From positions 1 to 50,733 of IMG/VR virus record IMGVR_UViG_3300042922_000711: 50,733 bases of DNA, one strand, 5' to 3'. The translations under genes and the position numbers were made by a program. The notes under the pieces are model-generated. The model did no database searches and was not told the DNA's origin. It saw nothing but the letters and a program-made list of their open reading frames with translations. Within the stretch, counting starts at the first letter, position 1, and each line of letters opens with the position of its first letter. This DNA comes from a virus. Lineage: Duplodnaviria > Caudoviricetes. Positions 1 through 50,600 of the stretch are shown here, in pieces.

Positions 1-79
1 ATTACAAGAATTAGATAATGCTTTAGAAAAAGGATATATAACAGAGCAAGAATACACTGAAACTTTAGCTTTAGTTTAG
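1..79 (+). CDS. 3' end of XkdX-like small tail-associated protein (truncated by window edge)
   Basis: Identical to the 3' part of ORF 42576-42782 (ends ...EYTETLALV*, TAG at 77-79). Confidence 0.8.
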   Translation, partial: LQELDNALEKGYITEQEYTETLALV

Positions 80-99
80 GGAACAAAAGAAAAATTTCG
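1..99 (+). repeat. Exact direct repeat, copy 1 (copy 2 at 42704-42802)
   Basis: Base-by-base comparison: identical for 99 bp, diverges after ...AAAATTTCG; may extend left of the window. Confidence 0.95.
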
Positions 100-106
100 T
101 GTCGCA

Positions 107-132
107 AAAAGGATCTCTTTGAGGTCCTTTTT
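107..132 (+). terminator. Putative intrinsic terminator
   Basis: AAAAGGATCTC-TTT-GAGGTCCTTTTT hairpin plus T run. Confidence 0.6.
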
Positions 133-158: not shown

Positions 159-476
159 ATGGATTTAACTTTTACAAGTGTCTTAACTCTTATGAGCATT
201 CCAAGCGCTTTTACAGGCTTCTGCTTTTGGGTTATTCAAAAGAGCATTAATAAAAAAGAAGAGAAAAGAGATGAGGCTGATAAGGCAAGGGAAAAAAATG
301 AAATTTTATTAATAAGAAGTGTCGGAGCTGCTATCGCCCTGGGTGAAGCAACCGCACATGCAATAAGAGATGGTAAATGTAATGGTGAAATGAGCGCAGC
401 TCTAGAATACGCGCAGAAGGTTAAGCATGAGCAAAAAGATTTTATGAGTGAGCAAGCAGTTAAAAATATGTTTTAA
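159..476 (+). CDS. Holin-like membrane protein (lysis module A)
   Basis: N-terminal hydrophobic helix plus charged tail; GAGGTG RBS; precedes lysis genes. Confidence 0.55.
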   Translation: MDLTFTSVLTLMSIPSAFTGFCFWVIQKSINKKEEKRDEADKAREKNEILLIRSVGAAIALGEATAHAIRDGKCNGEMSAALEYAQKVKHEQKDFMSEQAVKNMF

Positions 477-491
477 GCAGGTGAAAGGCCA

Positions 492-779
492 ATGAAAAAT
501 AATATGCCTATTACAAAGATTAAATACCGCACAGAATTTTCTAAAAAGATTCTCTATGTCGTATGGATTAGCACAACAATAGTTGTAGCATTGGCGTTTG
601 TATTAATGTGGCGTACAGGTGACCTATCACCACTCAGCTACATAGTATCAGGTTTATTCGCTGAAGTTGCAGCAAGCACAGGTTTTTATTATTGGAAAGC
701 AAAAAATGAAAATATGAAGAAAATAGAAGGGAGTATAGAATATGAAAATCAACTGGAAACAGAAATTGACAAGCCGTAA
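492..779 (+). CDS. Two-TM holin-like protein
   Basis: Two hydrophobic segments followed by YYWKAK; lysis context. Confidence 0.55.
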   Translation: MKNNMPITKIKYRTEFSKKILYVVWISTTIVVALAFVLMWRTGDLSPLSYIVSGLFAEVAASTGFYYWKAKNENMKKIEGSIEYENQLETEIDKP

Positions 780-954
780 GTTTTGGGCAGCTTTAACAGG
801 ATTTGTTACAGCCATTTTGGTGGCATTTAAGGTGCCTGATTTGACCGTTGAGCAGGTTGTTGCTATTATATCGGCCTCTGCAACAATGATTGCTTACATC
901 ATCGGTGAAGGCATGGTTGATGCTGCAAGAATCGGAAGTGATAAAGTTGAGTAA
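742..954 (+). CDS. Phage holin
   Basis: WKQKLTSRKFW N-terminus, two TM helices and YIIGEG, typical of Firmicutes phage holins. Confidence 0.75.
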   Translation: MKINWKQKLTSRKFWAALTGFVTAILVAFKVPDLTVEQVVAIISASATMIAYIIGEGMVDAARIGSDKVE

Positions 955-1513
955 ACTTTATGAAGGTAATTGTAAAATAACATCACCATTCGGGCCAAGG
1001 GATTTGGGCAATGGAGATAAACGTGACCATAAAGGCGCTGATTATGTTGGTATAGACAGTAAGAAAATTATTGCTCCGACAAATGGAAAAATAGTTTCGT
1101 CTCAGATCATTACGAATAAAAGCAATCCAACTTGGGAATGGGGAAATTACGTCAAGATGGACGATTTAAACGGTTTTTATTTGTTCTTTTGCCACTTAGC
1201 GAATAGAAATGTAAAAGCTGGACAAACAATCGCCAAAAGTCAAATGATAGGCTTGGAGGGTGCAACCGGGTATAGCTTCGGAAGTCATTTACACTTTGAA
1301 GTGAGAAGAAAATCTGACAATGTATCAATAGATCCTGAAGAGTACTTTAAAATCCTTGCCGCTTGGGAAGAAAAACAAAAGAAATTAACAGTTACTAAAG
1401 CTACTGAATTGGTGCAGGAAAAAGCAAATTTGGATGATGGAACCATCAACTATTTGCTAAAATATCCTTATGGTGGCGACCTTATGATAAAGCTGGCCGA
1501 AGCCATTAAATAA
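947..1513 (+). CDS. M23-family peptidase endolysin
   Basis: HxxxD (HKGAD) and HxH (HLHF) zinc motifs; TTG at 947 (in frame with ORF 890-1513) overlaps the holin end. Confidence 0.85.
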   Translation: MSKLYEGNCKITSPFGPRDLGNGDKRDHKGADYVGIDSKKIIAPTNGKIVSSQIITNKSNPTWEWGNYVKMDDLNGFYLFFCHLANRNVKAGQTIAKSQMIGLEGATGYSFGSHLHFEVRRKSDNVSIDPEEYFKILAAWEEKQKKLTVTKATELVQEKANLDDGTINYLLKYPYGGDLMIKLAEAIK

Positions 1514-1960: not shown

Positions 1961-2962
1961 TTGGAAGACAACAAGGAATTGGTTATAATCAAAATTTTAT
2001 CCGAATTACAGGAAAAATATGAAATTAATAATGTAGATGTGAAAAACATTCTGGACAGAAATCTATGTGACTATACATTGATTTCCAATGAAACTTCCCT
2101 GATGGCGACAGATCTGCCGGAAAAGATAACTTTCTTTCTAGGCTTAAAAGGCTTAGAGGGGCTTTCCAAACAATCAATCAGCAGATATAAAGATGAATTA
2201 ACTATGTTTCATAGATACGTGATTAAACCTACAAGTCAAATCACAATCAACGATATCAGGCGATATTTCGCGATTATACAATCGGAACGTTCATACTCGA
2301 AAGTCACTATTAACGGCAAAATGAGTGTGCTTAAAAGCTTCTTTGGGACGTTGTACAAGGAAGAAATTATTGAAAAGGATCCGACCGTCCGATTGAAGAA
2401 CATAAAAGTTGATGTGAAATCACTCAGAGAACATTTATCGGTTGAAGAATTAGAAATTATAAGAAATGTTTGTGAAAACATAAGGGAAAAGGCTATTGTT
2501 GAATTTTTAGTTAGTACTGGTGTTAGGGTTTCAGAATTGGTCGAAACAAAACTATCAGATATAAACTGGAATGAAAATTCTCTTGTTGTTCACGGTAAAG
2601 GTGACAAGTACAGGACCGTTTATTTCAGTGTTAAATGTAAATTATTTTTAAAAGAGTATTTAAGAACTAGAAAAGATATACACGATTCATTATTTGTCGG
2701 CGAAAGATTTCCATATGATCCATTGGCCAAGACCGGGGTAGAGAAGCTTATAAAAAGAATTGGTAATCGAACCGCCATAACAAAGAGTATAAGCCCTCAC
2801 GTCTTCAGACATACATACGCAACTTTAGCACTTGCACGAGGCATGGATATAACCATGATTCAACAGTTGCTTGGCCACGAGCAAATAAACACAACTCAGA
2901 TCTACGCGAAAACTAATACCAGGCAATTACAAATTGCATATGAAAAATATATTGCATCATAA
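1961..2962 (+). CDS. XerC/D-like tyrosine recombinase, copy A
   Basis: STGVRVSE (R), HGKG (K), HVFRH, LLGH, TQIYA (Y) all intact; N-terminal core-binding region. Confidence 0.9.
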   Translation: MEDNKELVIIKILSELQEKYEINNVDVKNILDRNLCDYTLISNETSLMATDLPEKITFFLGLKGLEGLSKQSISRYKDELTMFHRYVIKPTSQITINDIRRYFAIIQSERSYSKVTINGKMSVLKSFFGTLYKEEIIEKDPTVRLKNIKVDVKSLREHLSVEELEIIRNVCENIREKAIVEFLVSTGVRVSELVETKLSDINWNENSLVVHGKGDKYRTVYFSVKCKLFLKEYLRTRKDIHDSLFVGERFPYDPLAKTGVEKLIKRIGNRTAITKSISPHVFRHTYATLALARGMDITMIQQLLGHEQINTTQIYAKTNTRQLQIAYEKYIAS

Positions 2963-22464: not shown

Positions 22465-22760
22465 TCATCTTGAACCGGTTCAAACGAAGTAGCAGTAATG
22501 GTTGTGTGTCTCGGGTTCAAGATGGTTCAAGATACTTTTGAGTTCTTTATATATAGGGTGTAAAATCATTAAAATTTAATGATTTTCAAAAATATAATAT
22601 ATAGTATAAAAACTAAGTTGAACTTGAACTGCAAAATTTAACAATCAGCAAGCATATTGAAATTTAAACAAAATTAGCGGTTCAAGATTAAGTTTAAAAA
22701 TAGGGTTGATCTTGAACCCATCTTGAACCAAGTTGAACCTGTTGAAATTTCAACAAATAT
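22425..22760 (+). repeat. Iteron-like array R; candidate replication origin
   Basis: About 13 GTTCAA/TTGAAC hexamers in mostly opposite orientation on either side of the 25-bp palindrome AAAATCATTAAA-A-TTTAATGATTTT (22562-22586). Confidence 0.85.
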
Positions 22761-22782
22761 CAATAGAAAGGGTATTGAATTA

Positions 22783-23349
22783 ATGTCGAAAAAATCAAAA
22801 ATTATAGAAAAAGACGATAAAACAATAGAGAATTACATAGATGAAACGGTGAAAAAAACTGTAGCAGAAATTAAGCGACAAAGCATGTTGAAAAACAACA
22901 GACAAACACCATTTCAGAAGACAGAAACGCTTTTATATAATTATAACAATTATAAATCGGCCATAAAAGACAAGTACGAGCAGATTAATAGTATTCAATG
23001 CTTAGGTATTTCGAAGAAGTCTTCGAGTATAACATCATATTCATCAGGTCCAATATACGATATTAAAGATGATGATGATAAAGCAGAAGAGCAAATTATT
23101 TCAATAATAAACAGCATAAGAATTACTGAGAACTTTATCAAAATAATTGATTATGCAATTGATACTCTGAAGGATGATGAGTATTCGGACATAATAAGGC
23201 TAAAGTACTTTGAAGAAAAGAGCCGGGAAGAAATTGCAGAAATATTTGATTGTGATCCTTCGACAATCAGCAGAAATAAAAATAGGCTTATAAATTTGTT
23301 GCAGATCAGATTATTTTCAGATGAGGTTATCTGTCAATTATTTAATTAA
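22783..23349 (+). CDS. Late transcriptional activator (ArpU/RinA-like, sigma-70 region 4 HTH)
   Basis: IIRLKYFE..SREEIAEIF..D.STISR C-terminal HTH; last gene before terminase; GAAAGGG RBS. Confidence 0.75.
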   Translation: MSKKSKIIEKDDKTIENYIDETVKKTVAEIKRQSMLKNNRQTPFQKTETLLYNYNNYKSAIKDKYEQINSIQCLGISKKSSSITSYSSGPIYDIKDDDDKAEEQIISIINSIRITENFIKIIDYAIDTLKDDEYSDIIRLKYFEEKSREEIAEIFDCDPSTISRNKNRLINLLQIRLFSDEVICQLFN

Positions 23350-37098: not shown

Positions 37099-37748
37099 TG
37101 TATAGTTTTTATTTAGACGGCGTACAATTACCGATTGCACCTTCTAAGCTTACCATAAAAATCAAGAACCAAAATAAGACGTTAAACCTCATAAACGATG
37201 GTGAAGTTAATCTGCTAAAAACAGCCGGATTGACTGAAGTCAATTTTGACGCAAGATTCCCTCAGGTGAGATATCCTTTTGGCGTATATCCAAATGGTTT
37301 TAGAACGGCAGAATTTTTCTTAAATAAACTTGAAACGCTGAAACAAGGTAGGGAGCCTTTTCAATTTGTCGTTTCTAGGATGTCCCAGGGCGGAGATCTT
37401 CTGTTTGATACGAATTTAAGGGTGTCGATTGAAGATTATGACATTGAAGAAAGTGCAGCTGAAGGCCTGGATGTAATAGTATCAATTAAGTTGAAACAGT
37501 ACAAGTATTTCGGAAAGAAAACACCGATTATAAAGACCACACCAACAAAGACAACCCTATCGGTTACAGATAAAAGAACTGTCACAAGAGCAATACCCAA
37601 GACTTATACAGTCCAGCCGGGAGACTCTCTTTGGAAGATATGTAAAAAAGAATTGGGTGATGGTTCAAAGTATAATGAAATAGCTTCACTGAACAGCATT
37701 GCCAACGCCAATTTGATTTATCCAGGGCAGGTGATACGTTTTGGATAA
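37098..37748 (+). CDS. LysM-containing tail protein (XkdP-like)
   Basis: C-terminal YTVQPGDSLWKI...NLIYPGQ LysM. Confidence 0.9.
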   Translation: MYSFYLDGVQLPIAPSKLTIKIKNQNKTLNLINDGEVNLLKTAGLTEVNFDARFPQVRYPFGVYPNGFRTAEFFLNKLETLKQGREPFQFVVSRMSQGGDLLFDTNLRVSIEDYDIEESAAEGLDVIVSIKLKQYKYFGKKTPIIKTTPTKTTLSVTDKRTVTRAIPKTYTVQPGDSLWKICKKELGDGSKYNEIASLNSIANANLIYPGQVIRFG

Positions 37749-38703: not shown

Positions 38704-39136
38704 CATGAATGATGTGACTAAATTATTTAAACGTGCTGCCGTTGACGCAACTATGGCATCTGATCCAATGGCACTCGTGGTCGGTACTGTATTAAGTATT
38801 GCACCTCTTAAAGTGAATATTGAACAGAAGTTAACTTTAGGGGCAGCACAATTGCTTTTAACGAACAATGTTGTTGACCATGATGTAAGTGTAACAATTG
38901 ACTGGTCAACTGAAGAAATAACGCATAATCACGGCTATAGTGGCGTAACCGGTACGAGTGATTTGCACACCCATAGTTACAGTGGAGCAACTCAGGACAA
39001 CACTCATGGCCACGCTGTAACCGGCACTAAGATAATAAAAGTACACAATGCGTTAAAAGCTGGTGATATGGTGATGCTCTTGAGAATGCAGGGTGGACAA
39101 AAATATTTAGTAATTGATAAGGTGGTGGTAGCTTGA
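38687..39136 (+). CDS. Spike-like protein (XkdR/DUF2577-like) with His-rich insert
   Basis: LKAGDMV.LLR.QGGQKY; three HxH motifs. Confidence 0.75.
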   Translation: MILLRNMNDVTKLFKRAAVDATMASDPMALVVGTVLSIAPLKVNIEQKLTLGAAQLLLTNNVVDHDVSVTIDWSTEEITHNHGYSGVTGTSDLHTHSYSGATQDNTHGHAVTGTKIIKVHNALKAGDMVMLLRMQGGQKYLVIDKVVVA

Positions 39137-39531
39137 TTCCAGTAGTTGATGATCTACAACCTGATTTTGAAATAGAAACACAGCCTAGTAAGGCTTTTAA
39201 AATAAATTTTGATAAGCATAGGATGATTGGCTTCACAGATGGAATTGAAGCTGTCATACAGGCCATATTTTTAATTTTAAACACAGAAAGATATGAACGT
39301 GTAATATTCTCTTGGGATTATGGAATTGAGCTTGTTGACCTATTTGGACAGCCGATTCCTTTTGTTTTACCTGAGCTTAAAAGACGTATTACAGAAGCGC
39401 TCCTGCAAGATGACAGAATTGAATCTGTTGATAATTTTAACTTTGAAATTAGCAAAAGACAGGTCAATGTTAACTTTAATGTGGGGACGATATTTGGCAC
39501 CATAAACACAGAAAAGGTGGTGAACGTGTAA
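39133..39531 (+). CDS. Baseplate wedge (XkdS-like)
   Basis: TERY..IFSWDYGIEL, EALLQDDRI. Confidence 0.85.
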   Translation: MIPVVDDLQPDFEIETQPSKAFKINFDKHRMIGFTDGIEAVIQAIFLILNTERYERVIFSWDYGIELVDLFGQPIPFVLPELKRRITEALLQDDRIESVDNFNFEISKRQVNVNFNVGTIFGTINTEKVVNV

Positions 39532-40587
39532 ATGTTCGAAAATAAAACTTTTGATAGTATATTACAAGATATGCTCTCCAAGGTTAACAATTCTTTTGAT
39601 AAAAGAGAAGGCTCACCAATATACTTGGCTCTTGCTCCGGCTGCGGTAGAGCTTCAACAAACTTATATTAACCTGGATGCGCTGCTTGCAGAAACTTTTG
39701 CAGATACAGCTTCAAGACGGTATTTGATTAAAAGAGCAGCGGAAAGAGGACTTGCTCCTGAGTCTGCTACAAAAGCAGTGTCAAGAGCAACTTTCAATAT
39801 GGACGTGCCAATAGGTTCAAGATTTAGCCTGGACAATTTAACCTTCGTGGCCATTGAAAAAATAGACAACTATAATTATAAGTTACAGTGTGAAACAGCA
39901 GGAGCACAAGGAAATATACTCGGAAGACTGTTGCCGATTGATTACATTGCCGGCTTAACGACAGCAGAGTTGGTTGAAGTGCTGATACCTGGCGCCGATG
40001 AAGAAGAAACTGAAGTATTCAGGCAGCGTTATTATGACGATTTAGAAACTCAGGCATTTGGGGGGAACCAAGCTGACTACAAACAAAAAACAAAAGAACT
40101 CGCTGGTGTTGGTGGAGTTAAAGTTTATCGTGCTTGGAACGGTGGTGGTACAGTTAAGCTTGTGATTATTGACAGTGTATTTAATAAGCCAACTGTTGAA
40201 TTAGTGGATGCGGTACAAACAGAAATGGATCCTGTTGTTAATCAAGGAGCCGGATTAGGTATTGCACCAATTGGTCATGTTGTTACAATTGAAGCAGTAT
40301 CCGAATTAATAATAAATGTTAGCTCTACAATAACCCTGGCTTCAGGATATGTTTGGGTGGATGTTGAAACTTACATTCAAGACGCGATTAATAGTTACTT
40401 CTTGGACCTCAAGAAGACCTGGGAAAATGAAAATGCACTTGTTGTTAGAATAAGTCAAGTTGAAAGTGCTATCCTTAAAGTAACAGGGGTTGTTGATGTT
40501 ACCGGAACAACTTTAAATGCTGGTTCCATTAATCTTATATTAACTGATGTTCAAATACCGGTATTAGGGGCGGTGACTAACATATGA
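39532..40587 (+). CDS. Baseplate J protein (XkdT-like)
   Basis: DKREGS, CETAG..GN, GGNQADY, APIGH. Confidence 0.9.
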   Translation: MFENKTFDSILQDMLSKVNNSFDKREGSPIYLALAPAAVELQQTYINLDALLAETFADTASRRYLIKRAAERGLAPESATKAVSRATFNMDVPIGSRFSLDNLTFVAIEKIDNYNYKLQCETAGAQGNILGRLLPIDYIAGLTTAELVEVLIPGADEEETEVFRQRYYDDLETQAFGGNQADYKQKTKELAGVGGVKVYRAWNGGGTVKLVIIDSVFNKPTVELVDAVQTEMDPVVNQGAGLGIAPIGHVVTIEAVSELIINVSSTITLASGYVWVDVETYIQDAINSYFLDLKKTWENENALVVRISQVESAILKVTGVVDVTGTTLNAGSINLILTDVQIPVLGAVTNI

Positions 40588-41120
40588 GTTTAAAAGATTA
40601 TTGGATTGACGAAATACAAAAGGTTCAAGAATTCCAGGCCATAGCTGATGCAATAGATCCTGAAATAACTGATATAAATACTGAGACTGAAAATCTTCTT
40701 GATGATCAGTTTATCCAGGACGCAACTGAGAACGGAATAGCTAGAAGAGAAAAAATGTTAAATATTCAGCCATTCGCTGATGATACTTTAGAAACTCGGC
40801 GCTTCAGAGTGGGTGTAAAGTGGAATAATCAGCTTCCATATACGTATAGACAGTTAGAAAAGAAACTTACAGATTTAGTTGGTTTAAATGGCTATACTAT
40901 TGTTTTAGATAATGGAGCTTATACTTTAACTGTTAGAGTTAGTTTAGGACAAAAGAGAATGTTACAAGATGCTGAACGTATGGTAGATAACATGTCACCA
41001 CAAAATTTAGTTTTAACGGTTGACTTGTTATATAACAAATATAGTGATTTAGCCGGTTATACCTATAATTATTTAGCAACAAAGACATATGACCAATTAA
41101 GAAATGAGGTGTTATATTGA
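40584..41120 (+). CDS. Baseplate protein (XkdU/YmfQ-like)
   Basis: ATENGIARREK...DTLETRR; synteny. Confidence 0.8.
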   Translation: MSLKDYWIDEIQKVQEFQAIADAIDPEITDINTETENLLDDQFIQDATENGIARREKMLNIQPFADDTLETRRFRVGVKWNNQLPYTYRQLEKKLTDLVGLNGYTIVLDNGAYTLTVRVSLGQKRMLQDAERMVDNMSPQNLVLTVDLLYNKYSDLAGYTYNYLATKTYDQLRNEVLY

Positions 41121-42256
41121 ATTATACAACTAAAGGATTTAAGCTCCCGGAAGGCTCTGAATTTTATGAGTTAGATCATGCAAATTTCAATGCTCAAAAA
41201 TCAAATGATTTGATAGTTGAATTGGAAAATTCGAGACCTAAAAAAACATTAGATAATATTTCTTATTATGTTGATGCGGTAAACGGTAGTGACGCAAATG
41301 ACGGTTTAACTCAGGCTACGGCATTTCAGCATATTTACAAAGCAATCGGAATGCTGCCACAGGTAATAAACAATGATGTTGCTATTTACGTTTATGGCGG
41401 AACGTATAATGAAATAGTATCTTTAAAAGGAATTGTGGGCGGTGGTAAAGTTACTTTACAGAGTATGAATGGTCCTATTATCACTCAAGTCCTATGGGTT
41501 ACTAATTGTACTGTAGAAGTAAGTATCGCAGGTATTACAGTGAATAGTGCTGGTTATTTATCGGAGTGTGTGCTAATAAAAAATTGTACAAGTGTTTCAT
41601 TATCAAATACTACTATTAATGGTGTAAATGTAACTCATCCAAGCGCAGTAGGTATTTTGTGCTATAAAGCGCAAGTAGGACTGTTGAATTGTACAATTAG
41701 CAACATGACAAATTGCGGTGTATTCGCACATATGAACTCGTTTGTTTCCTCACAGAGCTGTTCAGGGGTCGGAAATGCGGTAGGACTTAAAGCTTCTGAT
41801 GGGATAATCTTCAAATTAGGAACACAGCCAAGCGGCACAACTGCCCAAGAAACATTTAACGCAGGACAGATTTTCAGTCAAGATGTTGAGGAACGAATTA
41901 ACTCTTTGGATGCCAATAAAGCTAATAAAGTACAAGAAGATTGGATTACAGCTACTTTGCAAAATGGATGGACAACAGTTGACATGTATACGGCTAAATA
42001 TATGAAAGATGAATTTGGCTTTGTGCATTTGAAAGGCGAGGTCAAAGATGGTGCACTAGCTACAACAATATTGACATTACCGCCTGGATACAGACCTGAA
42101 GAGGGGGCTTTCTCTATTGGAATATTTTGCAAAAGTGGCACATCTAAAATGCTTACAGATGTTAACATTTATGCGGATACAGGCGAATTGAAAATTTGGA
42201 CAGGTGGAACAACACAAGTAATTTTAAATGGTATAACGTTTAAGGCAGGTGCTTAA
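41117..42256 (+). CDS. Tail fibre / receptor-binding protein
   Basis: Short anchor, YYVDAVNGSDANDG plus beta-helix-like middle, C-terminal WITATLQNGW...GFVHLKG...LPPGYRP domain. Confidence 0.8.
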   Translation: MNYTTKGFKLPEGSEFYELDHANFNAQKSNDLIVELENSRPKKTLDNISYYVDAVNGSDANDGLTQATAFQHIYKAIGMLPQVINNDVAIYVYGGTYNEIVSLKGIVGGGKVTLQSMNGPIITQVLWVTNCTVEVSIAGITVNSAGYLSECVLIKNCTSVSLSNTTINGVNVTHPSAVGILCYKAQVGLLNCTISNMTNCGVFAHMNSFVSSQSCSGVGNAVGLKASDGIIFKLGTQPSGTTAQETFNAGQIFSQDVEERINSLDANKANKVQEDWITATLQNGWTTVDMYTAKYMKDEFGFVHLKGEVKDGALATTILTLPPGYRPEEGAFSIGIFCKSGTSKMLTDVNIYADTGELKIWTGGTTQVILNGITFKAGA

Positions 42257-42258
42257 AA

Positions 42259-42561
42259 ATGAAAAAAGAAGTGTTTGAAGTAGATACAAACGGTTATATA
42301 TCAAAAAAATATATTAAAGTGTTTGATGAGCAAGGAAATTGCTTAGAAGAGTTAGCAGAAAATACTATTGTAACTGAAATACCAGAGGGTTTATATCGAC
42401 CAAAATGGACAGGTATAGAATGGATTGAAGATATGTCACAAGAAGAAATTGACATATTGAACAATCAACCACATGAACCAACAGAAACAGAAAAGCTACA
42501 ACAAGAATTAGCGAGCACTAATGCTATGCTACTTGAATTTATGGAATCTATGTTGATGTAG
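42259..42561 (+). CDS. Tail fibre chaperone-like protein
   Basis: PEGLYRPKWTG.EW, PTETEKLQ; synteny. Confidence 0.65.
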   Translation: MKKEVFEVDTNGYISKKYIKVFDEQGNCLEELAENTIVTEIPEGLYRPKWTGIEWIEDMSQEEIDILNNQPHEPTETEKLQQELASTNAMLLEFMESMLM

Positions 42562-42575
42562 AAGGGAGAAATAAA

Positions 42576-42782
42576 ATGGCAATAAACAATTTATTAGTAA
42601 AGGCTTATGCAGTAAATATTTACAAATACGGAAACAGGAAATTTGCAACAATTCCAACAGAATACATTGAACCTGTAAAACAGTATGCAGCTACAAATTT
42701 CACATTACAAGAATTAGATAATGCTTTAGAAAAAGGATATATAACAGAGCAAGAATACACTGAAACTTTAGCTTTAGTTTAG
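42576..42782 (+). CDS. XkdX-like small protein
   Basis: KGYITEQEY C-terminus; last tail-module gene. Confidence 0.7.
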   Translation: MAINNLLVKAYAVNIYKYGNRKFATIPTEYIEPVKQYAATNFTLQELDNALEKGYITEQEYTETLALV

Positions 42783-42802
42783 GGAACAAAAGAAAAATTT
42801 CG
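42704..42802 (+). repeat. Exact direct repeat, copy 2 (of 1-99)
   Basis: Direct comparison. Confidence 0.95.
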
Positions 42803-42874
42803 GTGTGGAAATATGTGTAAACGTGTGGTAATATAAATACATAAGCACATAGGGAACAAAACGAGGTGGATTAA

Positions 42875-43189
42875 GTGAATTATAAAAAATCATGTGATAT
42901 AAAAATTTGGTATTGGAATTACAGAGATAAAGACAATAGGTATTCACAAGATAATAAGAAAATACATTTTGAAATACTGCAAAATAATGAAAGACAAATG
43001 CTGTTAAATTACCAGATACCAAAGTTTTTAGATGGCAATAAGTTGGTAGATGAATTTTTAGCAAGCAAATTTGCAACACTAAGTTTCTTGCCGTCACTTA
43101 ATTATAATCAAGATTTTAATACGTACAGCTTAAAAGAAGAATTAATAAATTTAATCAAGGGCGATTGTGACTACAGGGTTTTTGATTAG
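42875..43189 (+). CDS. Hypothetical accessory protein
   Basis: GAGGTG RBS, GTG start, AT-rich. Confidence 0.6.
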   Translation: MNYKKSCDIKIWYWNYRDKDNRYSQDNKKIHFEILQNNERQMLLNYQIPKFLDGNKLVDEFLASKFATLSFLPSLNYNQDFNTYSLKEELINLIKGDCDYRVFD

Positions 43190-43220
43190 AAAAAAGAGGG
43201 CTTAATTAGTCCTCTTTTTC
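43189..43220. terminator. Bidirectional terminator
   Basis: GAAAAAGAGGGCT...AGTCCTCTTTTTC between convergent genes. Confidence 0.65.
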
Positions 43221-43373
43221 ATGTGTTGACAGGTATTCTTTAAGTGCTAAAGAGATAAGAGAAGACATGGTACGTTCTTCTTTCTGGCAGAATTTAATCA
43301 TTCTGTCCTGAAGCTCCTCATCCATAGTTATGTTCATTTTAAGTTTTTTCTTATCTTCTGTAAGTTTAGCCAC
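43206..43373 (-). CDS. Ribbon-helix-helix (CopG-like) protein, 55 aa (not in ORF track)
   Basis: MAKLTEDKKKLKMNITMDEELQDRMIKFCQKEERTMSSLISLALKEYL...; GGGGGTGA RBS; promoter TTGACA-17-CATAAT (43420-43392). Confidence 0.8.
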   Translation of the reverse strand: MAKLTEDKKKLKMNITMDEELQDRMIKFCQKEERTMSSLISLALKEYLSTHEKED

Positions 43374-43546
43374 AAAATCACCCCCGTACTTATTATGGTG
43401 GTATTTTGTTCCCTTGTCAATAAAAAGTTATACAAACGTTGATATTTCAACAATTTTAGAAATAGAATAATTTCGTTTACTAGAGACTTTAATATGAGGT
43501 CTCTTTTTTAATACAAAATAATAGTCCATGAGACTTAAAAAGGAGA

Positions 43547-43819
43547 GTGAACATGAATATAGCAGCAGTAAAACAAGCTTTTACATCAAAGTATGATGAA
43601 CAGATCCGCACAATAAGCAAAGAAAAAGAAGTTGACATGAGTGTTGCAATGGACATTCTTGTTGCTCATGTGAGAAATAGAAATAAGTCGGAAGAACAAT
43701 TATCAAACACTGCGTACTACTATAACTTCACAGGATGTGAAAATTTGAATTATGAAGAACTGGATGAGGAAATCAAGGCTTTAGAAGACAATTTCATAAT
43801 TCCTAAGGTAGTAGAATAA
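43547..43819 (+). CDS. Hypothetical accessory protein
   Basis: AAGGAG RBS; own terminator at 43818-43838. Confidence 0.6.
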   Translation: MNMNIAAVKQAFTSKYDEQIRTISKEKEVDMSVAMDILVAHVRNRNKSEEQLSNTAYYYNFTGCENLNYEELDEEIKALEDNFIIPKVVE

Positions 43820-43853
43820 AGAGGGGAAACCCTCTTTTAATTTGAGGTGACTA

Positions 43854-44075
43854 ATGAATAGTGAAATCATAGTTGCACTTATTGCCTTGTTTGGCACAGC
43901 ACTAGGTACAGGTGGAGGTATTGTTGTATCTAGCAAATTAACTAACTATCGAATAGAGCAGCTTGAAAAAAAGGTTGATAAGCATAATACGATAATAGAA
44001 AGAACATTTGTACTTGAAGAGCAGATAAAAGTTGCTAATCATAGGATTTGTGATTTAGAGGAAAAGGAGAAATAG
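43854..44075 (+). CDS. Holin-like (XhlA-type) protein, lysis module B
   Basis: N-terminal TM; YRIEQLEKKVDKHN. Confidence 0.75.
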   Translation: MNSEIIVALIALFGTALGTGGGIVVSSKLTNYRIEQLEKKVDKHNTIIERTFVLEEQIKVANHRICDLEEKEK

Positions 44076-44076
44076 T

Positions 44077-44307
44077 ATGAGTGAAATAAAAGAAGAAACA
44101 TTAGAAATGCTTCAGCCAGTCGAAAGAGAATTAACATTTTTACAAAGGCTTGCAAGACTTTTAAGCGTAAAAAGTTTAGTAACTGTAATTTTAACAAGTG
44201 TATTTGCTTATTTATCAATCATAGGCAAAGTAGAACCTCAACAGTTTATGACTATTTTTACTACAATTATAGCTTTTTACTTTGGGACTCAAGCAAAGAA
44301 GGAGTGA
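44077..44307 (+). CDS. Holin
   Basis: Two TMs; IIAFYFGTQ. Confidence 0.75.
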   Translation: MSEIKEETLEMLQPVERELTFLQRLARLLSVKSLVTVILTSVFAYLSIIGKVEPQQFMTIFTTIIAFYFGTQAKKE

Positions 44308-44311
44308 TATT

Positions 44312-45565
44312 ATGAATTACTTAGTAATATTGGATGCTGGCCATGGCTTGGATACATCAGGTAAGAGAACGCCTCTCTTTCCTGATGGCTCTTTCATGCG
44401 TGAAAATGAATTTAATCGTTCAGTCGTAAGAAAGATAGATGCTATTTTGGAAAAGTTTGAAAATATAGATGTGGTATTTACAACAACAGAAAAAAGAGAA
44501 ATTGGCTTACAAGAGAGAGTAATTAGAGTCAATGACTTGTATGACAAAGTAAAGAGCCTATATGATAAAATCGTCTTGGTATCGGTACATGCAAATGCAC
44601 TAACCGGATCATGGGGAACACAAAACGGAACATCAACATATCATTATCCCGGCAATCAAGTTGATAAAGAATTTGCTACAGTGATTAATAATAATTTAAT
44701 TGCTAAGACAAAGTTATTTAACAGGGGAGTATTGGAAGGTAATTTTCAAATAGTAAGGGAAGTCAAAATGCCTGCTTGCCTTTGCGAATGTGCTTTTATG
44801 GATAATTTGACAGAGGCAAAATTATTATTAACTGATGAATTCAGACAAGCATGTGCAGAAGGCATTAAAAGCGGTTTAATCGAATATTTTGGAATGAACA
44901 AGCAAATAGTCAATGTTGAATATTCTGCAACTACAAACGGCCCATATCAACTTAAGGGTAATGCAGAAGACTTTGGTGTAAAGATAGTTAATAAAAAAAA
45001 TACTGCTATTGAAGAACCCTTTTGCACAAATGGTACTTTCTTTTGGAATGATACTTTAGGAGCAAAGTATTCAACAAGTATTTTATATGCAGACGGTGTA
45101 ATTTATCAAAACTATGCAAATCACCTTCCTTGTGCTCAAAACGTATTTATAGTTTTTAAAGACGGCAGAGTAAAAATGATGAAGCTAAGAAATCTAAGCG
45201 AATTAAACTTAGATACTGTTCGTATTGCAATAGGCGGTATTGGGTTAAGGAATACGCAAGATGCTACATTCAAATATGATCCAGCAGCAGAAGGATTTGC
45301 CGGTGCCTACTCAGATGTGCTGAGAAGAACCAATAAGACGGTTATAGGATATAATGTTAAAGAAAATAAAATATGTTTGATGTGCCGAAAAAATATTATA
45401 CATAGTAGCACACTATATGATTTATTGGAACTTGTAAAAGATTGCGAATTTGATATTGCTTTATCAGTAGATGGTGGAGGCTCATCATTCATGAACAATG
45501 CTGATGAAATGGTCCTTAGTGGGGATGGAAGGGTTATTCATAATATAATTGGCTTTGGACTTTAG
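44312..45565 (+). CDS. Endolysin: Amidase_3 plus phosphodiester-glycosidase (NAGPA-like) domain
   Basis: LDAGHG, E..FN, SVHANA, CECAFM in the N-half; NGTFF, RT..TVIG, SVDGGGSS in the C-half; ATG 44312 after AAGGAG. Confidence 0.8.
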   Translation: MNYLVILDAGHGLDTSGKRTPLFPDGSFMRENEFNRSVVRKIDAILEKFENIDVVFTTTEKREIGLQERVIRVNDLYDKVKSLYDKIVLVSVHANALTGSWGTQNGTSTYHYPGNQVDKEFATVINNNLIAKTKLFNRGVLEGNFQIVREVKMPACLCECAFMDNLTEAKLLLTDEFRQACAEGIKSGLIEYFGMNKQIVNVEYSATTNGPYQLKGNAEDFGVKIVNKKNTAIEEPFCTNGTFFWNDTLGAKYSTSILYADGVIYQNYANHLPCAQNVFIVFKDGRVKMMKLRNLSELNLDTVRIAIGGIGLRNTQDATFKYDPAAEGFAGAYSDVLRRTNKTVIGYNVKENKICLMCRKNIIHSSTLYDLLELVKDCEFDIALSVDGGGSSFMNNADEMVLSGDGRVIHNIIGFGL

Positions 45566-45606: not shown

Positions 45607-45640
45607 TAACCGGACATTCTGTGTCCGGTCTTTTTTATTT
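45607..45640. terminator. Terminator hairpin between convergent genes (homologue of 1511-1545)
   Basis: ACCGGACA-TTCTG-TGTCCGGT plus T run. Confidence 0.8.
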
Positions 45641-45883
45641 TTTGTACATATACCAGGTGTTAGTCTTAACCCCATACTTTAATTCGTAAATGGCACTGCC
45701 TTTATGCTGACATACAAACATAATATTGTTATTCCCAAAATTTTTGTCTTCGTATACTTTCAAAATCTTTTCTACCATTACCGGCTCATCTTCATACCAG
45801 AATTTGACCGGCTCAATTTTTCCGTCAGAGTGGAAGATGGCCATAACTTTAATAGGTTCATTTATAATTTTCAAAATAATCAC
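45635..45883 (-). CDS. Small hypothetical protein
   Basis: GAGGTG RBS; DGKIEPVKF...YELKY....W pattern. Confidence 0.65.
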   Translation of the reverse strand: MIILKIINEPIKVMAIFHSDGKIEPVKFWYEDEPVMVEKILKVYEDKNFGNNNIMFVCQHKGSAIYELKYGVKTNTWYMYKK

Positions 45884-46154: not shown

Positions 46155-46343
46155 TCAAATCCATTTAAAATAAATCCATTTTATCAATTCTATTTCATTT
46201 TCATTAAAATCTTTCTCGGAATGGTTAAGCCAAGGGGCCATCGGCGATTCTATAATCACTTCTTTTACAGAAATCCGTTTCTTTTTCAATTTTTTCTGGA
46301 TTTTTTAAAAAATTTCTGAAATGTGGTAAGCTTGCTTACCCAT
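46155..46343 (-). pseudogene. Possible disrupted small gene (MGKQAYHISEIF*KIQ...KWI*)
   Basis: 63 codons with one internal TAA; its first 13 nt are duplicated at 47476-47464 just after the hydrolase stop. Confidence 0.4.
46331..46343 (+). repeat. 13-bp direct repeat CTTGCTTACCCAT (second copy 47464-47476) flanking recombinase B
   Basis: Exact match at both positions. Confidence 0.9.
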
Positions 46344-46430
46344 GATTACCCATGAAAAAATTATTTAAAAAATACTTGATTTGTAATTCTATTTTTCCTT
46401 AAAATGCCTGAAACAATTAAGGAGGCATTG

Positions 46431-47432
46431 ATGGAAGATAGTAAGGAATTAATCATCATAAAAATTTTGAGTGAATTGCAGGAAAAGTATCAGATAAACA
46501 ATATTGATGTGAAAAACATTTTGGAAAGAAATTTGGAAAATTATAGCCTGATTTCTAATGAGACTGCATTGATGGTGTCAGATCTGCCGGAGAAGGTAAG
46601 GTTCTTCATCGGCTTGAAATCACTGGAAGGATTGTCGAAGTTGTCACTGAAGAGATACCAGGAAGAACTGGCCATGTTTCAAAGGTATGTCAAAAAGCCG
46701 GTAAGCCAGATAACTGTTAATGATATCAGAAGATATTTTGCGATGATTCAAAGCGAAAAAGAATATCAGAAAATAACTATTAATGGAAAACTGAGTATAT
46801 TGCGAAGTTTTTTCGGGACACTATATAAAGAAGAAATGATTGAAAAGGATCCTACTATTAGACTGAAAAATATCAAAGTTGATGTGAAGTCTTTGAGGGA
46901 CCATCTCACAGCGGAAGAGTTGGAGATAGTAAGGAACGCCTGCAGCAATATCCGGGAGAAGGCAATAGTTGAATTTCTTTATAGTACCGGCTGCAGGGTG
47001 TCGGAAGTCACTAATACGAAGATTTCAGATTTAAACTGGAATGAGAACAGTCTTATGGTCCATGGCAAGGGAGACAAATTCAGAATTGTTTATTTCTCGG
47101 TTAAGTGCAAAATTTATTTGAAAGAATATCTTGAAAAAAGGAATGGAGAAAGCGAATTGCTTTTCGTTGGTGAAAGAAAACCGTACATCCCACTTAACAA
47201 ATCCGGCATTGAAAAGATTATCAAGAAGATTGCTGCCAGGACAAACATAAAGAAAAGCATTTATCCGCACATCTTCAGGCACACATTCGCAACTCTGGCA
47301 CTACAAAGAGGCATGGATATCACGCTCATTCAGCAATTATTGGGCCATACCGAAATCAATACAACGCAGATTTATGCTAAGACAAGCACTAAGCAGTTGC
47401 AAATTGCGTACGAAAAATTCATTGCAGCATAA
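46431..47432 (+). CDS. XerC/D-like tyrosine recombinase, copy B (paralogue of 1961-2962)
   Basis: AAGGAGG RBS; STGCRVSE, HGKG, HIFRH, LLGH, TQIYA; same length (333 aa) and colinear with copy A. Confidence 0.9.
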   Translation: MEDSKELIIIKILSELQEKYQINNIDVKNILERNLENYSLISNETALMVSDLPEKVRFFIGLKSLEGLSKLSLKRYQEELAMFQRYVKKPVSQITVNDIRRYFAMIQSEKEYQKITINGKLSILRSFFGTLYKEEMIEKDPTIRLKNIKVDVKSLRDHLTAEELEIVRNACSNIREKAIVEFLYSTGCRVSEVTNTKISDLNWNENSLMVHGKGDKFRIVYFSVKCKIYLKEYLEKRNGESELLFVGERKPYIPLNKSGIEKIIKKIAARTNIKKSIYPHIFRHTFATLALQRGMDITLIQQLLGHTEINTTQIYAKTSTKQLQIAYEKFIAA

Positions 47433-47457: not shown

Positions 47458-47485
47458 GGCTGTCTTGCTTACCCATTATTTCTCA

Positions 47486-47908
47486 CTATTTTTCTATCCC
47501 ATATAATCGCTTTCCGAATTTCTTTTTACTCATAGGATAAAGAATTTGCACCTTTCCATTTGTAAGATCACCAAGTATATGCGATAAAAATCCAAGAGTG
47601 AAGCCTGCCAAAATCGCATTAATTCCCCACAACAAAGTTGCAATAATAAACATAATTGTCATTATAAAGATACTGTGAGTTATAGTTCTATGACCGATAC
47701 ATTCGAAAATGGGCTCACTTATAAAATTAAATCTATGGCCAAGAAAACTATTTGGTGTGTCAATGTCCGGATATAATGCTCCCAAGAGCAAAGCAGGGTA
47801 AAATAGTATCAATTCAACTAGAGCAAAGTCAAGCAAGAAATAGTCTAATGCTATACCTATTATTAAAGCAACTGATAAGTGCTCTTGATAGTTGTCGAAA
47901 ACAATCAC
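47486..47908 (-). CDS. YdjM-like membrane metal-dependent hydrolase
   Basis: GALYPDID, GHRTITHS, SHILGD motifs with TM helices. Confidence 0.85.
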   Translation of the reverse strand: MIVFDNYQEHLSVALIIGIALDYFLLDFALVELILFYPALLLGALYPDIDTPNSFLGHRFNFISEPIFECIGHRTITHSIFIMTIMFIIATLLWGINAILAGFTLGFLSHILGDLTNGKVQILYPMSKKKFGKRLYGIEK

Positions 47909-48006
47909 CTTCTTTTAATATTAATTAATATTTTTTATGTAACATTTCCAAATAGCAGTCATATTATACACTATGATTTAATATTATTTACCAAGGAGGT
48001 GTAAAT

Positions 48007-48180
48007 ATGGCAAAACCTATATATCTAACTTTTAAGAGAGAAGAAGAAATAATATATGATTGGATATGTTCGCATTCTAATAAAGGAGGTTATATCAAAG
48101 ATTTAGTCAAGGCTGATATGGAAAAGCAAAAAAAGAGCAATCAGAAAGTTATGAAAGGTTTTTTAACATTAGAAGAATAA
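48007..48180 (+). CDS. Small RHH-like DNA-binding protein, 57 aa (not in ORF track)
   Basis: AAGGAGGT RBS; MAKPIYLTFKREEEIIYDWI...YIKDLVKADM. Confidence 0.65.
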   Translation: MAKPIYLTFKREEEIIYDWICSHSNKGGYIKDLVKADMEKQKKSNQKVMKGFLTLEE

Positions 48181-48290
48181 TAAATGCTCCCCAACCGCCT
48201 GCAAGCTGATATAGGGAGCAAACACAAGAGTGTGTTTTTATTATGCTATCAAAAAGGCGGTTCAATGTCTGTCGAATTCTAGGAGGAAAT

Positions 48291-48509
48291 ATGAGAAATG
48301 GAAAATATTATGAAAGACTAGAGAAAAAACAAGATAAATTATATAAACAAATGGATGCTGAATTTAAAAATATAATGAAAAAATATGGAGAAGAAACAGA
48401 AGACGGCATTCTAATTGATTTTAAAAGCATTGATAAGGAAAGTTTGCAAAATTTTAAAAATAAATATGGCAAGTATTATAAGAAATGGCATGGCGATATC
48501 TTAAAATAA
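48291..48509 (+). CDS. Hypothetical protein
   Basis: AGGAGG RBS before ATG 48291. Confidence 0.6.
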   Translation: MRNGKYYERLEKKQDKLYKQMDAEFKNIMKKYGEETEDGILIDFKSIDKESLQNFKNKYGKYYKKWHGDILK

Positions 48510-48537
48510 AATTTAACATTAATATTGGGAGGCAAAG

Positions 48538-48726
48538 ATGGGATTTTTATACAAGACTTTTGAAAATGCGTGCTATAAAGGAATACATGAGGCCAACAAG
48601 GAAGGTATCAGACAGTTAAGAGAACAGGTCGCAGAGGGAAATATATCCAAGGAATACTTTAATAACCTAGTTTACGGTACAAACGATAAAGAGGAAATTA
48701 GAAGAAAAAGGAAAAACATCTGGTGA
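48538..48726 (+). CDS. Hypothetical protein
   Basis: GGGAGG RBS. Confidence 0.6.
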   Translation: MGFLYKTFENACYKGIHEANKEGIRQLREQVAEGNISKEYFNNLVYGTNDKEEIRRKRKNIW

Positions 48727-48885
48727 TAAAACACGCGGCACAGAACTGCATTCCGCTCACGCTTCATATGTTCTTACAAGTTATAATTTAACTTGTCCAA
48801 TAGTTACAATATATCGCAAGAACAGGTTCTTTGGCCATGAACAAATCAAAGAACAAATTATGGAACACTTATAAGGAGGTTTAAT

Positions 48886-50091
48886 ATGTTAGAATTAGTT
48901 ACAATGGCTGCTGTCAGTTTTGCAGGAGGATACATTATTGATGATTACTTAAGCAGAAGAAATTGGATGGCAATATTTAAAAGTACAGGATTATATATTG
49001 AAAATAAATATCCGGAAGTTAAGAGAACTGAAAATAATAAAATAGGCAAGAGATACATTTTCAAGGTACCATATGGCTTATGCTTGAGTGATTTTGAAAA
49101 GAGAATAGAAGAATTAGAAATGGCTTTACATGAACCTATAAAGTGCGATTTAACGAACGATTATAATATTGCCATACAAATATACCACCTTGCATATAAA
49201 AAGATTTACAAACTAGTAAGCAACTTGTTAAAGACTAATGATTTAGTATTCCCTATAGGTATGACTTTAACCACAGAAGGAGAGGAAAATGTTAGTTTAG
49301 AATTCAATAGAAGTAATAGTCACATGTTAGTTTGTGGAGGTACTGGTAAGGGAAAAACAGCATTTATGCAAAATTTAATAGCACAAGCAATGCTAAAAAG
49401 AAATCTGGAAGTCTACATATGTGATTTAAAAGCAACTGGATCCTATAATGTATTTAAGAACTGTTTTAATTTGAAAGAGCTTGTTAAAAGTGACACTGAG
49501 ACTGTAAGAATATTAAAAAAGATTTTAAACATTATGCAGCAACGGTACAAAAAACTTGATGAGCACAATTTAAATGATGCAGGTGAATATAACGAAAAAT
49601 TCAAAAATGAAAAAATGAATCGAATTATACTTGTTATTGAAGAATTTGTTATATTGAGCAAAAACAAAAAGGTAATAGATCTATTAAATATATTGTTGGC
49701 TCAGGCTTCAGGAGCAGGAATTCATATATTTCTAACAGTTCAAAGACCAGATGCAAAGACACTTGATACCAGGCTGAAAAATAACTTATCTTACACAGTA
49801 GCATTTAAGGCTAAAAATTCAAGCAGTTCAGAAACCTATCTTGATAAAGGCGATTATAGAGCAGCCACTGATCTTCGCAAACCAGGTGAAGCAATTCTAG
49901 TAAAAGACGATGAAGATATCTATTTTAAATCTTATTTTTCCACTAATGAAGAAATTGAAAATTTAGTTAAAAAGACATATGTAAAAAAGAAAACTGAAAG
50001 CAATGTTATTGAACTGCCAAAAGCCGAGCCTCAAAAGGAAGAACCGGATGAAGCACCTGGCGATCCAGAGCCGGAGGATGATGTTTTATGA
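48886..50091 (+). CDS. FtsK/SpoIIIE-domain ATPase
   Basis: HMLVCGGTGKGKT, DLK, LVIEEF, VQRPDA; N-terminal hydrophobic segment. Confidence 0.9.
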   Translation: MLELVTMAAVSFAGGYIIDDYLSRRNWMAIFKSTGLYIENKYPEVKRTENNKIGKRYIFKVPYGLCLSDFEKRIEELEMALHEPIKCDLTNDYNIAIQIYHLAYKKIYKLVSNLLKTNDLVFPIGMTLTTEGEENVSLEFNRSNSHMLVCGGTGKGKTAFMQNLIAQAMLKRNLEVYICDLKATGSYNVFKNCFNLKELVKSDTETVRILKKILNIMQQRYKKLDEHNLNDAGEYNEKFKNEKMNRIILVIEEFVILSKNKKVIDLLNILLAQASGAGIHIFLTVQRPDAKTLDTRLKNNLSYTVAFKAKNSSSSETYLDKGDYRAATDLRKPGEAILVKDDEDIYFKSYFSTNEEIENLVKKTYVKKKTESNVIELPKAEPQKEEPDEAPGDPEPEDDVL

Positions 50092-50600
50092 CAGAAAGAG
50101 ATTTGCAAATAGTTGATTTTGTTTCAAAATGTCCCTGCAACTCGGCAACTTTACATAAGATTTTCTTTCCCGGTAAGAGTATGAGAATGGCAAATAAGCG
50201 ACTGTTTAAACTGTTCCAATATGGATATATAAACAGAACAAGAGACAGTAGCTGGGATAATTATACTTACTTTCTTAGTAAGAAACCAACGCAGTTAATT
50301 CATTCTGATTGCATGGCCAGAAGTTATTTATGGCTGCTTGAAAAAGGGTACACAATTTATAGTTATGAATTTCAAAAACAATACGGAAAAGTAAGACCAG
50401 ATTTAACAGCAGATATTGAGAAAAACGGCAAAAGGGGAATCGTTGCTGTTGAAGTGGAGTTATCAAATAATGATTTTAATAAGAAAATTAAAAGTTATGA
50501 AGAGCAAGAATTTTTTAAGAGTATGATATTAGTAAGTAACTATAACAGAAAAAGTGAGCATGTTAAAATCACTAATGTAAATATAAAAGAGCTGCCTTAG
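50088..50600 (+). CDS. Replication-relaxation (Replic_Relax)-like protein
   Basis: MTERDLQI wHTH start, RPD...VEVE nuclease-like motif; coupled to FtsK. Confidence 0.7.
   Translation: MTERDLQIVDFVSKCPCNSATLHKIFFPGKSMRMANKRLFKLFQYGYINRTRDSSWDNYTYFLSKKPTQLIHSDCMARSYLWLLEKGYTIYSYEFQKQYGKVRPDLTADIEKNGKRGIVAVEVELSNNDFNKKIKSYEEQEFFKSMILVSNYNRKSEHVKITNVNIKELP

Follow-up and report, generated by a model that had tools for sequence, protein, structure and literature searches.

The DNA analysed here is an entire virus record of IMG/VR (IMGVR_UViG_3300042922_000711; Caudoviricetes), a single contig of 50,733 bp referred to as the window, and our subject is a 30-bp imperfect palindrome, the junction element, which stands at the border between tail and lysis genes, together with the two-gene cassette lodged there. 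The element reads TAGGSAACAAAA, GAAAAA, TTTNGTNNNCTA, and the window holds two versions of the border, modules A and B. In module A, the contig begins inside the last open reading frame (ORF) of the tail module, whose 3' end (1..79, plus strand) is identical to 42704-42782 and whose stop is the TAG of the element (77..106, plus strand; left arm TAGGGAACAAAA, spacer GAAAAA, right arm TTTCGTGTCGCA). A terminator-like hairpin with a T-run follows (106..132, plus strand), predicted by RNAfold and not called by a consensus scan, and then come lysis module A (159..1513, plus strand; a phrog_9428 ORF, a 95-aa ORF, a holin-like 70-aa ORF and an M23 peptidase) and a XerD-like tyrosine recombinase of 333 aa (1961..2962, plus strand; Pfam Phage_integrase, E 3e-35).

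Module B has the same last tail-module ORF in full (42576..42782, plus strand; 68 aa, without Pfam or PHROG family) and after it the left copy of the element (42780..42809, plus strand), with a perfect arm TAGGGAACAAAA, the spacer GAAAAA and an unusual right arm, TTTCGGTGTGGA, which lacks the usual CTA. A half-site TAGGGAACAAAA at 42850..42861 (plus strand), kept in three of the relatives described below (L059, L071 and L085), lies immediately 5' of the ribosome-binding site of ORF104 (42875..43189, plus strand), an orphan without Pfam or PHROG match. ORF104 converges with a gene for a putative RHH (Arc/CopG-like) DNA-binding protein of 55 aa (43206..43373, minus strand), and between them is an inverted repeat with 12-nt arms, 92% complementary, which resembles a bidirectional terminator (43191..43219). 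The RHH gene has a sigma-70-like promoter (43392..43420, minus strand; TTGACA, 17 nt, CATAAT), found by promoter scan with 11 of 12 consensus matches, whose spacer contains an inverted half-site with one mismatch, AAGGGAACAAAA (43404-43415, minus strand). The cassette is closed by a degenerate right copy of the element (43453..43482, plus strand; decayed left arm, spacer GAATAA and a right arm, TTTCGTTTACTA, fitting the consensus), and an intrinsic terminator-like hairpin with a T-run (43482..43512, plus strand) precedes lysis module B (43547..45565, plus strand; a 90-aa ORF, phrog_1863, phrog_13256 and an Amidase_3/NAGPA endolysin) and a second XerD-like tyrosine recombinase, of 342 aa (46404..47432, plus strand), flanked by a 13-nt direct repeat. 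The 12-mer TAGGGAACAAAA is found four times in the window, at 77, 42780 and 42850 on the plus strand and, with the one mismatch, at 43404-43415 on the minus strand; all are at this locus, and 0.77 would be expected by chance.

Seen as a whole, the window runs from the end of a shared block through lysis module A and recombinase A to a minus-strand classical integrase with ImmA and a repressor; a full phage comes next, then a second copy of the block with the cassette after it, and finally lysis module B, recombinase B, YdjM and FtsK/Rep-like genes. Bases 1-99 equal 42704-42802 at 100% identity, after which identity stops; this is the sole long repeat in the window and, as it opens with the very first base of the record, it is the assembly that determines how long it is. 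Depth was read from the Logan contigs of the only public run that contains the stretch; this run (X1, a soil metagenome) is probably the source sample, so that these data are not independent. A piece of 907 nt (41896-42802) had a depth of 30.8, with neighbours at 14.8 (38824-41925) and 11.7 (42773-43742). This double depth indicates that the block is present in two contexts of similar abundance, and both of its junctions were confirmed by independent Logan contigs. The 99-nt identity is the visible end of this 907-bp tail-fibre block (41896..42802, plus strand), common to two phage contexts in the sample and made up of the distal tail-fibre part, a 100-aa ORF and the 68-aa ORF. We infer a tandem arrangement, the two contexts probably being two prophages in one genome; alternatively, they may be a circular phage plus a second relative. 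Megablast gave no GenBank phage match to either module.

A sequence-only reading of this DNA had proposed that the cassette was inserted, in the manner of an integron, at a duplicated 16-bp site exactly where the modules stop being identical. The 16-mer, CAAAAGAAAAATTTCG, is indeed found at 84-99 and 42787-42802, as inner part of the palindrome, and identity does end at 99/42802; the break, however, is not razor-sharp, since about 12 further nt are similar with one 1-nt indel, and the two perfect 16-mers are no separate duplication, being merely the tail of the 99-nt repeat. As described there, about 670 bp with ORF104 and the RHH gene lie between the repeat copies in B, and the terminators after the two modules are similar (A 120-148 and B 43494-43522, 25 matches in 29 aligned columns, a score reached in 0 of 300 shuffles). 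The degenerate copy, AAATAGAATAATTTCG, was correctly placed at 43460-43475, although it matches at 13 of 16 positions and not at 14. By itself this copy is not significant, because 2.88 matches with up to three mismatches are expected by chance in the whole window, about 0.04 of them within 700 bp by simple arithmetic. What makes it credible is that one relative (contig loci of relatives are given L-numbers, and whole records searched G-numbers), L059, has a copy matching at 14 of 16 at the same place, and that it belongs to the wider 30-bp element. We accordingly considered whether the repeat is chance in AT-rich DNA and the contrast between A and B an assembly artefact. The number of chance matches expected in the window would allow this, as would the start of the repeat at the first base of the contig and its length of 99 nt, which looks like an assembler overlap. 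This explanation is nevertheless hardly credible, given the same cassette layout in L059, the membership of the repeat in an element found in 23 other contigs and the Logan contigs confirming both junctions of the shared block.

Contigs bearing the element were collected by exact-word search. The exact 20-mer AGGSAACAAAAGAAAAATTT was found in 25 IMG/VR contigs, in 23 of which it is preceded by T, giving a TAG stop; the matches in the remaining two, L062 and L081, look like chance or coding sequence. The TAG ends an ORF of 24-353 aa in 18 of the 23 element contigs, and in three more (L071, L074, L075) an ORF's own stop abuts the element, L070 having an 11-aa ORF and L064 none. These upstream ORFs are mostly short and have a similar terminal motif when read by eye, and BLASTP similarity was found in only 4 of 136 pairs among 17 of them. 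The XkdX-like label that the 68-aa ORF had been given came from gene position and a C-terminal motif read by eye only, and no XkdX match was found in Pfam or PHROGs. Mean ungapped nucleotide identity was 0.33 over the 60 nt before the element and 0.35 over the 60 nt after it, versus 0.85 within its own 30 nt, 20 of which are fixed by the search. The phages that bear the element are also very unlike: with tblastn (E 1e-5 or better, at least half of the query covered), no ORF of the window of 50 aa or more matched more than three of five near-complete element-bearing records. Each of these five has one full element, and in general the full element is found once per record, plus 1-3 partial copies.

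Among relatives of the last tail ORF, reading by eye found TAGGGAAC after the stop in four of nine IMG/VR loci (L001, L002, L003 and L006), and in none of the genome contigs (13 loci, 10 of them convincing) or the metagenome contigs (29 of 30 loci read), where the element itself was not scanned for. An exact 21-mer was present in 0 of 401 sampled genomes from the class of one Clostridia metagenome-assembled genome. A literature search by words, which is not a sequence search and did not cover supplements, found no description of the element.

The imperfect dyad noted in the sequence-only reading is real, though its 5-6-5 form is the inner part of a 12-6-12 dyad. Complementarity peaked at a 6-bp spacer (4.96 of 9, versus 0.65-3.35 at other spacers); this score compares nine unselected left-arm positions with the right arm and, the rows being related, is descriptive and not a probability. 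Partner positions were kept at A30 in 23 of 23, T29 in 18, C28 in 16, G23 in 21 and T24 in 14, so that an invariant left arm faces a degenerate right arm. A relaxed scan recovered spacer variants (CGAATA in L089 and L099, GAAATA in L093, CGAAAA in L006), and L136-L138 have a left arm in TAA form. Inverted arms of about 11 bp around a 6-bp central region are the geometry of Xer/dif-type sites, and half-sites end exactly at the border of arm and spacer in at least six different contexts. Two of the element loci stand apart by their arrangement. In L085 (the same contig as L140, 4065-4161), three elements are in tandem, 35 and 32 nt from start to start, with no genes between them. In L064 (4990-8570), a holin/amidase region lies upstream of the element and the Dit and Tal tail genes after it, reversing the usual order of tail and then lysis, and the record (G006) possibly combines two prophages.

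A hairpin of variable sequence that resembles a terminator is usually found 3' of the element, and this setting raises the question of an element that is chiefly a signal for gene expression at the end of the tail operon, either a regulator's site or an RNA hairpin controlling read-through or translation; the cassette would then have arrived once by illegitimate recombination, and its inner half-sites would reflect control of its genes by that same regulator. Several features speak for such a function: each phage genome has a single full element, invariably placed where tail genes give way to lysis genes; RNAfold repeatedly predicts, immediately ahead of the terminator, a hairpin whose loop has 6 nt; in L065, L067, L069 and L076 the ribosome-binding site of the next gene comes directly after the element, with no terminator; half-sites lie in the RHH promoter spacer and before the ORF104 ribosome-binding site; and the three tandem copies of L085 resemble an operator array. 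On the other hand, changes in the right arm are mismatches, with no compensatory changes that would maintain an RNA stem, and no Rfam family came near gathering threshold. Furthermore, no protein is common to the element-bearing phages, hence no shared regulator was found, the phage's sigma-like protein has no homolog in any of the five near-complete records, and an expression signal by itself leaves independent cassettes and swaps at one spot unexplained. We therefore hold this explanation to be decidedly doubtful. The promoter scan called none inside the element itself. As a separate candidate, an extracytoplasmic function (ECF) sigma promoter read by eye (-35 GGAAC, AAC-N19-CTAA) was rejected: no similar sequence precedes the terminase genes, and the phage protein lacking homologs in 5 of 5 near-complete element records is the Sigma70_r4_2 protein that would have to serve it.

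Comparison with relatives showed that the sequence-only reading had identified a genuine recurrent exchange point, with empty sites, another cassette and a gene swap within the same cassette. Empty sites are seen in L001, where homology to module A continues through the element, and in L061/L068 and L073, which have B-type leaders. L002 and L003 carry a different cassette of 269 bp with a 50-aa CxxC ORF, flanked by TAGGGAACAAAA, the right copy being a full element. The CxxC cassette is also present in L071, where the upstream ORF ends in TAA and there is no left copy of the element, the order being CxxC ORF, element, half-site, 81-aa ORF and terminator. L059 has the layout of module B with ORF104 replaced by a 139-aa YopX protein; by eye, it is mostly identical to the window from the right arm of the hairpin through the RHH gene to the lysis genes, and its right copy is AAATAGAAAAATTTCG. 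The left limit of this swap is TAGGGAACAAAA(C/T)GAGGTG(G/A)ATTAA, that is, half-site and ribosome-binding site, and its right limit is the hairpin. In L006 (the same contig as L013), next to the element comes an ORF whose matches to tail proteins are confined to their C-terminal parts, a truncated tail gene fused after the element, and then a further ORF and the lysis genes. Modules A and B themselves had been taken as the empty and the filled allele of one site, which they are not: the lysis genes that come after them bear no relation to each other (phrog_9428, holin and M23 versus the 90-aa ORF, phrog_1863, phrog_13256 and Amidase_3). Empty and filled alleles had further been predicted to share one breakpoint; both kinds were found, whereas the junctions lie at differing positions, homology ending at the left edge of the element, after position 12, after 22-23 or after 31-34. 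Full sites do not bound every module either, several junctions having half-sites, a degenerate copy or no copy. No Logan contig of X1 joins across the cassette, which is uninformative either way as contigs cannot show rare forms.

An additional motif bears on the left edge of the shared block. A tail-fibre coding motif at 41885-41912, at the left edge of a variable tail-fibre block, resembles the left arm of the element; it holds position 41896, where the 907-bp block begins, and is a boundary in other loci too. It reads GAAGTTAAGGAACAAAATAACTCTTTGG in relatives and CTTAGGGAACAAAAATAACTC in L068, and has diverged to GAGGAACGAATTAACTCTTTGG in the window; re-oriented copies are at L063 2449, L069 4286, L070 2686, L074 3854 and L068 3321. 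The likeness to the left arm (TTAAGGAACAAAATAACTCTTTGG in relatives) may be coincidental, because the motif is coding sequence.

With these alleles at hand, the region 42803-43452 can be read as a moron, that is, a self-contained accessory unit made of the orphan ORF104 and a convergent Arc/CopG-type RHH regulator. The unit has a strong promoter-like site, that of the RHH gene, and an intergenic hairpin, and the site is empty in L001, L061 and L073. The RHH protein matched RHH_5 with 27.1 bits (Pfam cut-off 26, E 3.5e-6) and the PHROG Arc-like repressor with E 2e-6. ORF104 had only two homologs (51-53% identity) and no Atlas match, its relatives in IMG/VR gave no new locus, and its AlphaFold model was too poor for a fold search (mean pLDDT 54.6). 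No promoter was called for ORF104, a candidate in the roughly 40 nt after the left copy being read by eye only.

Our preferred explanation, to which we give about an even chance of being right, is that this moron sits in a junction element akin to the promoter-early stem-loops (PeSLs), mobile regulatory cassettes of T4-type phages (PMC2839356, PMC4122927), and is exchanged by homology-driven recombination. The element, near-identical among phages sharing little else, would serve as a patch of homology, at which the modules on either side (tail-fibre blocks, morons, lysis cassettes) would be swapped by host RecA or by the phage's own recombination genes, and other conserved patches, such as the half-site with ribosome-binding site, the terminators and the tail-fibre coding motif, would act alike. 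Among its own genes, the phage carries a fusion of AAA_24 with PD-(D/E)XK and a DUF669 protein. We favour homology-driven exchange because junctions vary, because the L071 cassette has no left copy and L006 a fused truncated gene, and because other patches also form borders, the XerD-like recombinase is dispensable for keeping the element, recombination genes are present and precedents exist. As to the latter, recombination of the homology-driven kind has been reported for the PeSL promoter-terminator cassettes (PMC2839356), and relaxed homologous recombination in temperate phages is another precedent (PMC3945230).

A number of points weigh against homology-driven exchange. Homologous recombination would have only 30 bp to work with, which is short, and no event of this kind was seen. 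The uniformity of the element set is partly built in by the exact-word search, and AAA_24 is only presumably a Sak4-type recombinase. Exchange by homology leaves unexplained why the element is so well conserved between phages sharing almost no proteins, and also leaves unexplained the dyad with its 6-bp spacer and the several copies that stop exactly after ...AACAAAA; the dyad and these exact stops fit a site recognised by a protein. To the same side belong the positions of the XerD-like genes. Eight IMG/VR contigs (L059, L060, L061, L085/L140, L136, L137, L138 and L139) have such a gene at 60% identity or more and, with the two copies in the window, an element lies within 6 kb upstream in nine of ten contexts, the exception being L139; in L138 the element is only about 50 nt before the recombinase gene.

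These observations suggest as a rival that a tyrosine recombinase, the phage's XerD-like enzyme where there is one or else a host Xer-type enzyme, uses the element as its core site, and that cassettes and modules move site-specifically, as Xer-dependent dif modules do. In its favour, the 12-6-12 dyad combines an invariant left arm with a degenerate right arm, the half-sites end exactly where the spacer begins, and the two copies in B (perfect left and odd right arm in the one, decayed left and consensus right arm in the other) are like attL and attR. Tyroviruses, moreover, are reported to carry in their structural modules tyrosine recombinases with putative 11-6-11 sites (PMC9703825). The sequence-only reading had likewise seen in the XerD-like enzyme a possible mover of cassettes. 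The enzyme is present in both modules as it said (copies A and B are 75% identical), with genes starting 1.9 kb (A) and 3.6 kb (B) from the element, past the lysis genes, and no Pfam domains other than Phage_integrase and SAM-like ones were seen in the proteins. However, whole-record searches of 10 other element-bearing contigs gave no close homolog, three of the records being near-complete (G001, 100%; G006, 92%; G009, 100%); the best weak matches were 34% over 62 residues in G009 and 25% in G014, and G001 had no tyrosine-recombinase match at all. The XerD-like enzyme is thus dispensable for keeping the element, and its part as cassette mover finds no support here. The one-way link between recombinase and element can be explained by synteny, because both sit beside lysis genes. 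Moreover, the nearest annotated phage homologs, from Clostridium phage phiCp-D (44% identical) and Terrisporobacter phage TPELB_ph1 (42%), also lie between tail and lysis genes, and these phages have no element. Nor do the junctions favour a core site: their position is not fixed, the L071 cassette lacks a left site, the three tandem elements of L085 enclose no genes, and the spacer is no freer to vary than the right arm. Taken together, we consider a tyrosine-recombinase core site unlikely. In a narrower form, the palindrome would be a dedicated dif-/lox-like site at which prophages residing in the same host exchange their lysis cassettes, morons and tail-fibre blocks by means of a phage or host tyrosine recombinase, and the half-sites would be scars of single-strand exchanges at the border of arm and spacer; this seems to us rather improbable.

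Repeats were also found around the recombinase genes, none of them tying these genes to the element. A pair of CTTGCTTACCCAT repeats (13 nt exact; 22 nt with 86% identity) at 46331-46352 and 47464-47485 flanks recombinase gene B, and the pair flanks the 98%-identical gene in L059 as well (6938, 8062); neither copy A nor the other relatives showed it. Inverted repeats of 36 nt, 83% complementary and 38 nt apart, lie just 5' of gene A (1837-1946). Between endolysin and XerD-like gene there is a conserved minus-strand ORF of 79-82 aa (45635-45883 in the window), in or just past which several IMG/VR contigs (L002, L003, L070) end, which points to a prophage boundary, or else a break in the assembly, at that ORF. 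Elsewhere in the window, a 42-nt direct repeat with 71% identity (37660-37701 and 41394-41435) links two tail genes, and an intergenic cluster of short repeats of the GGTTCAAGAT / ATCTTGAACC type, which look like iterons or operator repeats, lies at 22440-22740, ahead of the Sigma70_r4_2 gene (22723-23349). After prophage B, the region 47486-50600 holds a minus-strand YdjM, small ORFs, an FtsK/SpoIIIE-like ATPase and a Rep-like protein, and resembles a portion of an integrative mobilisable or conjugative element; record G005 has homologs of its genes (34-64% identity) grouped together.

With respect to known systems, the likeness to integrons that the sequence-only reading proposed has some basis, since gene cassettes are found at one acceptor site that abuts the upstream stop, and some of the phages have a tyrosine recombinase. 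Integrons have the gene of the integrase (IntI, which has an extra domain of its own) beside the acceptor site, where it is always present, and promoterless cassettes in one orientation, each ending in an imperfect palindrome of the attC type. Here, in contrast, the recombinase gene is not adjacent (except in L138) and is often absent, a 30-bp repeat or half-sites take the place of attC, the junctions are not uniform, and the cassette has its own promoter-like site, terminator-like hairpin and convergent genes. By the features tested, the locus is not an integron, and an integron-like mechanism has to be given up. Closer in geometry are the Xer-dependent dif modules of Acinetobacter plasmids, in which small accessory modules, some of them with regulators, are reported to lie between short dyads that have a 6-bp spacer (PMC6449649, PMC7399989); in our case the sites do not flank every module and the setting is a phage and not a plasmid. 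If the dif-/lox-like reading were true, the locus would be a phage-borne counterpart of these modules. Tyrovirus gp50 offers a phage parallel, being a Xer-like recombinase among late genes with an inverted-repeat site of 6-bp core; the putative 11-6-11 attP, however, comes directly after the recombinase gene, the phages are Bacillus phages of 160-170 kb, and no cassette exchange is described in the part of the paper available (PMC9703825).

By analogy, the locus would appear to work most like the PeSL-type junction cassettes, its likeness to Xer/dif sites being one of geometry. In both, a short conserved intergenic motif with a terminator stem-loop marks the junctions of insertions, deletions and replacements between related phages, and small genes of unknown function adjoin; in the PeSLs, copies recombine and modules are shuffled as a result. 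PeSLs differ in that they are many per genome and are associated with mini-circles, lie in hyperplastic regions of virulent T4-like phages and have a strong promoter inside, whereas here one full copy with half-sites, in the form of a 12-6-12 palindrome, is found where tail and lysis genes of temperate phages meet. In phage mosaicism, sequence signals that guide swaps are known in few cases, the T4-type PeSLs being an example (PMC2839356); the boundary sequences of lambdoid phages are another. What is left of the proposal is an exchange point defined by sequence and common to phages with almost no shared proteins, a 30-bp palindrome at which genes for host range, accessory functions and lysis are all exchanged. 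Should the element direct this exchange, whether by homology or through a recombinase, it could predict where cargo enters and how host range moves between co-resident prophages. Lastly, the cassette resembles the morons in being an autonomous small transcription unit between two phage modules that is absent from close relatives, and differs from them in its point of insertion, which is a recurrent, sequence-defined slot common to otherwise unrelated phages.

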